Below, in pieces: positions 7,028 through 62,435 of a stretch of DNA of 64,000 nucleotides (positions are counted from its first letter, which is position 1; each line of letters begins with the position of its first letter). The DNA comes from Dictyostelium discoideum (lineage: Eukaryota). The stretch covers positions 2,688,001-2,752,000 of the forward strand of contig CM000152.2 of the NCBI GenBank assembly GCA_000004695.1, in the 5' to 3' direction. The position numbers and the translations under genes are program-made. The notes beneath the pieces are model-generated. The model searched no databases and was not told the DNA's origin. It was given only the letters and a program-made list of their open reading frames with translations.

Positions 7028-8215
7028 TTGAACAACTATTGCGAAGAAACCTCACTCAAGTACATCTCCGCGAGAATCAAGAAAAGACACAATGATTTCA
7101 CCATCAACGCAGTAAAAGATGTACAAGGTAGAACAAATAACAAACAGGAATTGATCGAAGAAGAATACGTAAAATATTACTCAAATCTTTATGACTACAA
7201 AGAAGATGACCCACTATCTCATTACGAAATGTTGGAAAATTGGACAGTGACCAGGGACTCAACATGGGACAACCTTGAAAATGAATTCACCTCACAAGAA
7301 ATCCTAGAAGTAATAAAACAACTGAACCCACACAAATCTCCAGGTCCAGATGGAATTCCAAACTTATTCTACATAACACACAAAGAAAAACTAGCTCCAA
7401 TACTGGCCTCAGCATTCAACGACACTCTAAGAAATCCTCATCTAAATAGCAAAAATTACAAAGAAGGCCTCATTATCACGATACCTAAAAAGGGAGACCC
7501 CGAACTAATCAAAAACAGAAGACCAATTACACTGGCTAACTGTATATATAAAATCCACTCAAAGCTAATAAACAATAGAATAATCCCAATACTAACGAAA
7601 GTGATCAACCACTATCAAAAAGGTTTCGTACCAGGCAGATTCATTATAGATAATATCATATCAATGAACGAATTAATCAACTATTGTAATGATAAAAGAA
7701 TTAACGGAATAATTACACTATATGATTTCGAAAAAGCTTTTGACTCGATCTCACACGGTTCAATACTTAGATCACTACAACACATCAACATTCCAACCAA
7801 TATAATCAACCTGATAATGAATCTACTCACCAAATCTGAAGCAAGAATTGAAATTAATGGTAGAACTACTATACCCTTTGAGATCAAAAGAGGAGTTAAA
7901 CAAGGAGATCCACTATCACCCACACTGTTCGTCCTTGTAATAGAGGCTTTAGCTAGAAAAATTTTACAAGATGATCGAATTACTGGCCTTCCTCTAAACA
8001 ACAGCAACCACAGAGAGAAATTCCAAAGCTTTGCAGACGACTCGGCTTCAATGGTCCCAGACTCTCAACAACTTGAATTAGTACTACAACACTTCAATTC
8101 ATTTTGCAAAGCCACTTCCTCAAAACTAAACATCGACAAATCTTCATCAATTCTTATAGGCAACCCAGACAATACCAACACAGCGAAGAAAAAACCACCT
8201 TTAAATTCGCTTTAA
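7028..8215 (+). pseudogene. TRE ORF2 fragment: reverse transcriptase domain.
   Basis: PGPDGIPNLFY, LYDFEKAFDSISH and SFADDSA (YXDD-type) motifs typical of non-LTR RT. The ORF is interrupted at 8215 by 1.5 kb of module repeats. Confidence 0.75.
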
Positions 8216-12534: not shown

Positions 12535-12607
12535 TGCTCGATGCAGGGATCGAACCTGCGACCGTGGCGTTATTAGCACCACGCTCTGCCGACTGAGCTA
12601 ATCGAGC
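12535..12607 (-). tRNA. tRNA-Ile (anticodon AAU).
   Basis: Manual cloverleaf: GCTCGAT-TA-GCTC-AGTCGGCA-GAGC-G-TGGTG-CTAATAA-CGCCA-CGGTC-GCAGG-TTCGATC-CCTGC-ATCGAGC-A. A and B boxes present. T8 terminator on the gene strand (plus 12522-12529). Confidence 0.9.
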
Positions 12608-57399: not shown

Positions 57400-57473
57400 G
57401 TTCGGATGGTGTAGTCGGTTATCACGAATCCTTAACACGGATTAGGTCGTGGGTTCGATTCCCGCTCTGAATA
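57400..57473 (+). tRNA. tRNA-Val (anticodon AAC).
   Basis: GTTCGGA-TG-GTGT-AGTCGGTTA-TCAC-G-AATCC-TTAACAC-GGATT-AGGTC-GTGGG-TTCGATT-CCCGC-TCTGAAT-A. Very close to canonical eukaryotic tRNA-Val. T5 terminator at 57485-57489. Confidence 0.9.
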
Positions 57474-57514
57474 CAAACTAATACTTTTTCCAAAGACAAA
57501 TTTTCATAGTCAAA

Positions 57515-60540: not shown

Positions 60541-61485
60541 ATGAAATTAATAATTCAACTAATAATTTTAATTTTAACAATTAAACAATGTTTGGCATTT
60601 GAAAAATTATTTGTAAATTTAGTACCATACCAAACATCAAGTTGTTCAAAAGGTGGTGCCCAATCAAGTGGTATTGGTTTTAGTGGAATTATTGATACAT
60701 GTTTAACAATTGATGCTTTAAGTAATTTTAAATTTACTGTGGGTTCAAATAAAATGATTACTTGGTCAACTTATAAAGCAAAGAATGTTTCAGAAGTAAC
60801 TTGTACAACTGATAATCAAGTTTCATCAACAACTACTCCAATAGGTTCATGTGTTGCTAGTAAATCATTTGATATTGATTCTGATCTTATGCCAGTTAAT
60901 CCATTCTTTTATGAAGTTTCAGTATCTGTTACTCCATTAATTCAAGATAATTCAGTTGTTAATATGTTTATGAGTGGTGAAAGTTGTACTTCAGATAATG
61001 CTTTAATTGTTGAATATATTACCGTTGGTACATTTGTATTATCTCAACAAGATAGTGGTATATTTGAATATATTTGTTCGAATGGTGTACCTGAAATTGT
61101 TGCTTGTGATTCACATAAAAAAAATTGTAAAGCTCCAACCAATGCTGCATTGGACTGTTATAATATTTCCCCATTCTTTAATGGTTCATCATTTGAATTA
61201 CCATGTTCTTCTGGTTCACAACAAGGTTCAGAAAGTTGTGCACCTTTACCTTTTTCAGGTTCTAGTGCTGGTGCTAGTTCGGGTGCAGTATCAAGTGGCT
61301 CAGGTTTTTCATCTGGTTTTGTTTCACCATCAATGAAAACATCTGGTTCAACAGGTGCATATACCAATTATATTGCTAATAGTGATACAACTACTGGAAA
61401 TAGTTATCAAGAATATAATAATTTAAATTCAATGAATCCAATTGTTTTGTCCTATTTAACAACTTATTGTTCAAGCAGTAATTAA
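60541..61485 (+). CDS. Secreted Cys-rich protein with Ser/Gly-rich C-terminal region and hydrophobic C-terminus (possible GPI anchor).
   Basis: MKLIIQLIILILTIKQCLA signal. About 16 Cys. SGSSAGASSGAVSSGSGFSSG low-complexity stretch. 314-aa single ORF. Confidence 0.5.
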   Translation: MKLIIQLIILILTIKQCLAFEKLFVNLVPYQTSSCSKGGAQSSGIGFSGIIDTCLTIDALSNFKFTVGSNKMITWSTYKAKNVSEVTCTTDNQVSSTTTPIGSCVASKSFDIDSDLMPVNPFFYEVSVSVTPLIQDNSVVNMFMSGESCTSDNALIVEYITVGTFVLSQQDSGIFEYICSNGVPEIVACDSHKKNCKAPTNAALDCYNISPFFNGSSFELPCSSGSQQGSESCAPLPFSGSSAGASSGAVSSGSGFSSGFVSPSMKTSGSTGAYTNYIANSDTTTGNSYQEYNNLNSMNPIVLSYLTTYCSSSN

Positions 61486-61693
61486 TTTAAAAATAAAATA
61501 TTAATTTTTTTTGTTAATTAATTAATAATTTGATTGTAAAATTTATTTAGTTATTTAAATTTTTTTATTTTTAAAAATATAATTTAAATGATTTATAATT
61601 GATTGTTTTGTATATATATATAATATATTATTAGCTGTCCAATCTACTGGTACAAATGTTCAAGAAAGGTGTGAAAAATAAAAAAATTAAAAT

Positions 61694-61734
<41 letters not shown>

Positions 61735-61884
61735 CATTAAAATTAAAATTAATTTGAATTAATTAAATTAAATTATTGCTGGGTAAACCTTAACAGATTT
61801 AAACAATAAAATCAATTAATTAATGTTAATACTTTTATATAGATGGTCTTGATTCACTAAAATCACCAAAATCATCTTTATCAT

Positions 61885-62120
61885 TAACTAGGCCTAGTTA
61901 CTGATGATTTTTCAAAACCACTCATTGTGTTGAAAAATCATCAAACCCATTATTATTTAATTAACCGAAGGTATATCTTTTACTTAGATTCTTTTTTATT
62001 CTTTATAAAATCGTTTGACTTTTTTTTTTTCTGTGCCAAAATTACCATATTAATATGGTAATTTTGGCAGAAATAAGTCCCATGCCAAAATTAATATGGT
62101 AATTTTGGCACGGGACAGTC
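61885..62120. repeat. Cluster of long perfect palindromes / hairpins in a less AT-rich island.
   Basis: 16-bp palindrome taactaggcctagtta. 14-bp inverted arms tgatgatttttcaa/ttgaaaaatcatca. 36-bp perfect palindrome 62034-62069. Related hairpin 62077-62116. Confidence 0.6.
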
Positions 62121-62435
62121 GCATTAATAAATTATAAAATTTATAAATCAAAAGAATCAACACCTTCTATATTTGATATGATTTTTATTGACTTCTGAAA
62201 AAAAAATTCTCCTTGTACCGGTAATCTTTTAAGTTCAATACAATCAATCATCCAAACTTGTACAAAGTAAACCTTGTGTACTTTGGGCATTGTTCTTAAA
62301 AAATAAAATAGAATATAATTAAATAAATAAAAAAAAGTAAAATTTTAAAAAACAGATAATAGATAAGGCAGTCTAATTTATTTTTATTACTTTTTTAAAA
62401 TATGGTTTGTTATTAATAATAAAATCTTTTAAATA

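Follow-up and report, generated by a model that had tools for sequence, protein, structure and literature searches.

What is the tight cluster of inverted repeats that lies on chromosome 3 of Dictyostelium discoideum, in the spacer of roughly 950 bp that separates the convergent (3'-3') orthologues of DDB_G0279955 and DDB_G0279957? A small-RNA gene, a transposon, a structured part of a neighboring transcript, and a relic are all conceivable answers. The window, by which we mean the whole 64-kb stretch of DNA analyzed, is very AT-rich and contains genes for U1 snRNA and for two tRNAs (Table 1); in the D. discoideum genome, tRNA genes are sites at which TRE retrotransposons land. An Rfam scan of the entire window at the gathering threshold returned only U1 and the two tRNAs, with no match to mir-7131, the miRNA family discussed below. 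When the window is spliced from 61477 to 61843, its translation is exactly the 332-aa AX4 protein of DDB_G0279955; this match and that of DDB_G0279957 (Table 1) mean that the products encoded here are identical to the pair annotated in AX4. Orthologous spacers were found via the flanking proteins in two other D. discoideum isolates (L010 and L011), in two assemblies of D. cf. discoideum (L009 and L134), in D. citrinum (L133), and in D. firmibasis (L135).

Palindromes H1 to H4 and the H/ACA-like layout

The earlier note on this DNA, made from the letters alone, had described four inverted repeats, among them a perfect palindrome of 36 bp, in a less AT-rich island of 236 bp. An inverted-repeat search of the window recovered all four (H1 to H4, Table 1). 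The island exists, but it extends over about 510 bp (61780-62290) rather than 236 bp. H1 has a perfect 14-bp core (AACTAGGCCTAGTT, 61887-61900) and sits within the terminal micro-exon of the AX4 model of DDB_G0279955, and H2, the arms of which are 94% complementary, likewise has a perfect 14-bp core (TGATGATTTTTCAA). The 36-bp palindrome, H3, is confirmed and is the longest of the window; the next-longest are pure A/T runs of no more than 26 bp, and a G/C-containing palindrome of 36 bp appeared in none of 400 dinucleotide shuffles (maxima 34 and 28). H4 carries a single mismatch, A:C on the + strand and G:U on the - strand.

H3 and H4 are not independent of each other, being tandem copies of one palindromic unit. 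They can also cross-pair, in a perfect 22-bp stem that joins 62033-62054 to 62090-62111. Folding of 61880-62130 (251 nt) gave z = -8.5 on the + strand and -9.4 on the - strand, and none of 200 shuffles folded as well. The minimum free energy (MFE) fold of H3-H4 consists of two local hairpins, at -45.9 (+) and -49.5 (-) kcal/mol; the long hairpin, when forced, reaches -42.3 (+) and -39.0 (-) kcal/mol and is thus less stable by 3.6 and 10.5 kcal/mol, respectively.

Table 1. Features of the spacer and of the remainder of the window (positions are those of the window)
Feature	Position	Strand	Basis or remark
tRNA-Ile(AAT)	12535-12607	-	Rfam scan
U1 snRNA gene, 78 bits	51612-51772	-	Rfam
U1 DUSE, TAACCCATAA	51827-51836	-	~55 nt upstream of U1; textbook
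tRNA-Val(AAC)	57400-57474	+	Rfam scan
CfaA_B_C-family gene, 314 aa	ends 61485	+	Identical to D. discoideum protein
T38 run, promoter-like T-rich tract or part of the AX4-model intron	61697-61734	+	Length varies among assemblies
Terminal micro-exon, AX4 DDB_G0279955 model (...NGLDSLKSPKSSLSLTRPSY*)	61843-61904	+	62 nt; spliced translation
H1, 26-bp near-palindrome, ATCATTAACTAGG/CCTAGTTACTGAT	61880-61905		Inverted-repeat search
H2, 17-nt arms, 8-nt loop	61902-61943		Arms 61902-61918 and 61927-61943
DUSE-like AAACCCATTA, chance match	61943-61952	+	Shuffles, U1 control, isolates
T11 run	62020-62030	+	Directly upstream of H3
H3-H4 module, aligned to the Rfam mir-7131 precursor	62025-62117	-	37.8 bits, E = 5e-6
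H3, perfect 36-bp palindrome	62034-62069		Unit U (TGCCAAAATTACCATATTAAT) overlapping its own reverse complement
H4, 17-bp stem, 6-nt loop	62077-62116		Arms 62077-62093 and 62100-62116
AATAAA, possible poly(A) signal	62126-62131	+	9 nt past H4; inference
49-aa ORF, not a gene	62141-62290	-	Homologue and conservation checks
Ancestral spacer segment	62208-62290		Common to window and D. cf. discoideum
DDB_G0279957 orthologue	ends 62436	-	100% identity to AX4 protein

The earlier note had seen in this arrangement a possible H/ACA box snoRNA, with a DUSE-like promoter sequence. On the one hand, the motifs are where they were said to be: AAATAA separates H3 from H4, ACAGTC (62115-62120) follows H4, and AAACCCATTA lies about 80 bp upstream, so that the order hairpin-ANANNA-hairpin-ACA is present; in an H/ACA RNA, ANANNA is the box of the hinge and ACA stands 3 nt before the 3' end. 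On the other hand, folding of both strands confirmed what the note itself had remarked, that the stems lack pseudouridylation pockets: the 16- and 17-bp stems are perfect, with no internal pocket. The best H/ACA model in Rfam, snopsi18S-1854, reached 17.6 bits where the gathering score is 40 (E = 6.7), which is noise. Nor are the boxes conserved within the species: L011 has GGGGCATCAATC where the window has ACA, and in L010 the entire module has been rearranged. The resemblance to H/ACA box snoRNAs is limited to the succession of parts (a hairpin, an A-rich hinge, a second hairpin, then ACA), whereas pockets, a model match, and conservation are absent, and we consider a snoRNA at this locus extremely unlikely.

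The promoter half of that suggestion fared no better. The DUSE-like site is present as described, but chance alone would yield 1.45 matches to AAACCCATWA per window, 84% of shuffles contain at least one, and the site reads AAATCCATTA in L011 and AAATCCTTTA in L010. The true DUSE of the U1 gene in the window, TAACCCATAA, differs from AAACCCATTA. A DUSE is recognized by the core AACCCATAA, placed about 55-65 nt upstream of the transcription start and conserved, and the site at H2 departs from this description. In addition, the T11 run lies between the DUSE-like motif and H3, past the start that this motif would predict. Runs of T act as Pol III terminators, and this one would be predicted to end any Pol III transcript begun at the DUSE-like site.

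Relationship of H3-H4 to the thug-S miRNA hairpin

Scanned against Rfam at permissive thresholds, the spacer pointed in another direction. Many miRNA models matched it; the best match was mir-7131 (RF03716), at 37.8 bits, below the gathering score of 74, and this was the sole Rfam model that agreed with the spacer at the level of sequence, with agreement reaching into the loop. Matches of miRNA covariance models (CMs) below the gathering score need such confirmation, as many unrelated miRNA models in Rfam score long perfect hairpins; for example, an unrelated perfect hairpin in L011 (7763-7861) matched mir-5014 at 50 bits (E = 9e-10). Because generic miRNA models reward any perfect hairpin, the claim of homology rests on sequence identity and not on the CM score.

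That identity is substantial. In a local alignment, the window and the mir-7131 consensus agree at 49/59 positions across the apex, including the loop GACTTATTTC; the score is 66, and 200 shuffles of the spacer reached no more than 28. The inner arms, ATTAATATGGTAATTYTGGCA and TGCCARAATTACCATATTAAT, are common to both and are 20/21 identical, the apical loop is nearly equal (GACTTATKTC), and each of the two structures is built of two mutually complementary arms that are themselves near-palindromic. The mir-7131 consensus agrees, at 22/23 and 19/21 positions respectively, with the miRNAs published for the transposon thug-S, UAUGGCUGCUGAAAUUAAUGUGG and AUUAAUUUCGGCAGCCAUAUU (Meier 2016, PMC4894637, Table 2); Rfam mir-7131 is thus the thug-S-derived miRNA called miRNA_can_D3 in Meier 2016. 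According to the account of Avesson 2012 given in PMC4894637 and PMC6161686, thug-S bears multicopy miRNA loci that depend on the Dicer-like DrnB. These alignments demonstrate that H3/H4 is homologous to the precursor hairpin of the thug-S miRNA over a module of about 90 bp. By the same comparison H3-H4 is to be classed as an unannotated, degenerate member of a known family of transposon-derived hairpins, and as such it is ordinary in kind.

The kinship comes with clear differences. The outer arms, which in mir-7131 hold the mature miRNA segment, are deleted in the window haplotype, and the mature 5p and 3p sequences of mir-7131 have no match in the window at up to three mismatches. The mir-7131 consensus folds as one hairpin (-60.8), whereas the MFE structure of the window is two short ones. 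The D3 copies of AX4 occupy six positions (Meier 2016 S4); the window module is at none of these and sits in a gene spacer. Rfam E-value scans of L009, L010, and L011 gave no mir-7131 CM match. Supplementary material published with Liao 2018, Meier 2016, and Edelbroek 2024 was searched for the palindrome and unit sequences and contained none of them, and a metagenome scan with TGGCTGCTGAAATTAAT gave chance 17-mer matches only, with no extended similarity. We consider it probable that H3/H4 goes back to the internal inverted repeat of thug-S, that is, to the ddi-mir-7131/miRNA_can_D3 precursor, and is a fragment of it that has degenerated and been rearranged.

Could the island instead be a complete MITE or foldback element, with the palindromes as transposase-binding terminal repeats? 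The repetition of one half-site four times in inverted pairs, the kinship of the module to a DNA transposon, and the presence of the region in D. discoideum but not in sister species would all agree with this. However, neither terminal inverted repeats nor a target-site duplication were found at the insertion boundaries (~61588 and ~62207), the palindromes are internal to the island rather than terminal, and at the equivalent position L009 has 464 bp of unrelated sequence, not a clean empty site. The other Dictyostelium DNA available, 128 kb, was searched for a second copy of the island, and nothing significant came up. A complete element of this sort seems to us very unlikely. The alternative offered in the earlier note, of a hairpin-RNA locus or a transposon remnant, was essentially right in kind, given the homology to thug-S, but it does not extend to terminal repeats or a target-site duplication, and the mature miRNA segment has been lost in the window haplotype.

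Variation of the spacer among isolates and sister species

The comparison of spacers covers four haplotypes of the D. discoideum group, and its fine detail hangs on the accuracy of the assemblies in palindromic DNA. At the orthologous spot, the mir-7131 arms are matched at 35/36 and 36/38 positions in L010 and at 33/36 and 34/38 positions in L011, and the mature miRNA sequences are present there with one mismatch in L010 and two in L011. Between L010 and the other two D. discoideum haplotypes (L011 and the window), a 50-nt segment enclosed by 26-nt inverted arms is flipped, with collinear flanks; L010 and L011 are 98% identical over this segment. The window in turn differs from L011 by two losses, both flanked by direct repeats: H3 lacks the 8-nt loop of its L011 counterpart (TTCAGAAT), and H4 lacks 18 nt of the L011 unit (GTGGCTGCTGAAATTAAT), with AAATTAAT as the direct repeat at the ends of the latter. 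The 18-nt deletion took out the core of the mature mir-7131 miRNA. TTCAG is present in L010, in L011, and in the thug-S consensus; the state of the window is thus derived, and its "perfect" palindromes are products of deletion. It follows from the deletions of loop and core that the hairpin-AAATAA-hairpin-ACA layout is an accident of two tandem sub-palindromes. H1 and H2 vary as well. L011 has an H1 identical to that of the window and an imperfect H2, and L010 has neither, having undergone a deletion of roughly 65 nt between direct repeats AAAATCAYC.

In the spacers of L009, L134, L133, and L135, there is no homology to window positions 61588-62207 and no copy of the unit. The cluster is specific to D. 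discoideum sensu stricto. Both the polymorphism of the cluster among isolates and its absence from the sister species are demonstrated here for the assembled sequences compared.

Several other features of these spacers deserve mention in their own right. In L011 (GCA_054859385.1), positions 7768-7857 fold into a hairpin (-62.6 kcal/mol) whose stem, about 33 bp long, is almost perfect. It arose when a spacer segment that both the window (62243-62264) and D. cf. discoideum carry as a single copy was duplicated in inverted orientation; in the window this arm falls within the ancestral segment 62208-62290. The hairpin resembles a young Dicer substrate and seems restricted to certain isolates. L011 also has about 150 bp with a (GTT)13 repeat (7085-7235) that is deleted in the window and L010, and that encodes a short poly-Asn ORF on the - strand; this may be another remnant of the spacer insert. 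In L133, L134, and L135, the gene downstream of the DDB_G0279957 orthologue is a paralogue of the 466-aa gene and not the CfaA-like gene, and the arrangement of CfaA-like gene and spacer thus differs there. Finally, the 49-aa ORF at the DDB_G0279957 side of the spacer was considered as a thug-S exon and rejected: it is without a homologue, and in L009 its ATG is lost and indels break the frame.

These differences suggest how the cluster may have formed. A fragment of the thug-S hairpin would have arrived, within the D. discoideum lineage, between DDB_G0279955 and DDB_G0279957 and would then have been reshaped at the DNA level, by a flip inversion between the 26-nt inverted arms and by slippage deletions at short direct repeats. 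In the haplotype of the window, loss of the 8-nt loop would have produced the perfect palindrome H3, and the 18-nt loss would have left a second unit without the mature-miRNA core. Comparable events, namely quasi-palindrome correction and inversion or deletion mediated by inverted repeats, are known from template-switch mutagenesis in bacteria and yeast. As in quasi-palindrome correction, hairpins that are imperfect in one haplotype are perfect palindromes in another; as in events mediated by inverted repeats, the spacer between two inverted arms has changed orientation, and the deletions have short direct repeats at their ends. Unlike in those systems, the mechanism here is deduced from end products in four haplotypes.

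Possible transcripts of the locus and what they would mean

If the spacer were transcribed, its RNA would be expected to fold into two hairpins of 16-17 bp or one hairpin of about 26+7 bp. Candidate sources of such a transcript would be the 3' UTR of DDB_G0279955, read-through of either convergent gene, and the T-rich tract. As the arms are 20/21 identical to thug-S, any products of DrnB/RbdB would be thug-S-related 21-mers, not canonical mir-7131.

The first of these sources corresponds to an explanation in which H2-H4 are structured 3' UTR elements of DDB_G0279955, with roles in mRNA stability, in 3'-end formation, in microprocessor cleavage, or as a barrier between the convergent genes. The spliced window does give the exact 332-aa AX4 product, across an implied intron (61478-61842) of 365 nt that contains the T38 run; the stop codon, TGA, is formed by the first 3 nt of H2; the AATAAA past H4 is the sole copy on the + strand within 61904-62300; and L011 keeps the frame of the exon despite a 3-nt insertion. 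However, three newer D. discoideum annotations give a single exon of 314 aa with the gene ending at 61485, D. cf. discoideum lacks the micro-exon, the C-terminus encoded in L010 is a different one, and the hairpins are not conserved among isolates. The AX4 model of DDB_G0279955 may be spurious, or the exon may be very young. If the micro-exon is real, H2-H4 would lie within the 3' UTR of this gene; that they are functional elements of it, in any of the roles listed, we hold to be improbable.

The T-rich tract is the starting point for a different explanation, that of an active, independent miRNA or hairpin-siRNA gene. Here, a Pol II transcript of the spacer would be diced by DrnB/RbdB into 21-mers, which would come from the arms of H3/H4 or from the 22-26-bp stem and would hit thug-S transcripts or a host target. 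The structure is very stable, its long-hairpin conformer, with a perfect stem of 22-26 bp, comes within 3.6 kcal/mol of the MFE on the + strand, the one mismatch of H4 is a G:U pair on the - strand, and homologous thug-S hairpins yield miRNAs. In D. discoideum, T-runs ending in G are found upstream of pri-miRNA start sites, and an intergenic pri-miRNA gene is recognized by a T-rich tract with a G start site at its end, which precedes the hairpin by roughly 100-300 nt (Liao 2018, PMC6161686). The T38 run lies at a like distance upstream, 168 nt from H2 and 300 nt from H3, but the base after it is C, not the G described at these start sites. The length of this run is 38 in the window, 32 in a near-identical assembly (L001), and about 20-25 in L010 and L011, which could be real polymorphism or assembly error.

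Other evidence also argues against an active gene. The local stems, at 16-17 bp, are shorter than a 21-nt duplex, the core of the mature miRNA is deleted in the window haplotype, and the locus is extremely unstable among isolates and missing in the sister species. It is likewise missing from the miRNA tables of laboratory axenic strains: besides the D3 copies of AX4, the chromosome 3 miRNAs in the tables of Liao 2018 do not include it. Absence from such lists is consistent with a relic, but it is no proof of silence. Taken as a whole, we find an active gene of this kind unlikely, and we incline, with less firmness, to doubt that small RNAs are detectable from the window haplotype at all. The fragment of the thug-S hairpin that we favor is most likely a decaying or neutral relic.

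There is a further way to look at the variation, as that of a segregating "proto-miRNA" locus. A captured thug-S fragment would have been reshaped by flips, inverted duplications, and deletions, such that wild isolates differ in the Dicer substrates that they carry: L010 and L011 still have near-exact mature mir-7131 sequences, L011 has its extra hairpin with the 33-bp stem, and the AX4-like haplotype has two short perfect palindromes, which may lie in the 3' UTR of DDB_G0279955. We put this forward as a speculation with a small chance of being right. Should the variants be expressed, the locus would show, inside a single species, how a miRNA gene is born and lost, with small-RNA repertoires specific to isolates. 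MITE-derived miRNAs are known in plants and animals. Like transposon-derived miRNA hairpins in general, the cluster is an intergenic inverted repeat with lineage-specific presence and rapid structural turnover; what sets it apart is that the variation is found within a species and is mostly degenerative.

For the genome of D. discoideum, the immediate result is that a false snoRNA/DUSE lead is removed and that an unannotated relative of the thug-S hairpin is placed on chromosome 3. The AX4 model of DDB_G0279955 ends inside a lineage-specific insert and may need review. The wider value is modest: the spacer offers a worked example of the turnover of transposon-derived inverted repeats within a species, and as such it bears on the very rapid turnover of miRNAs reported in Dictyostelia (Edelbroek 2024, PMC11014262).
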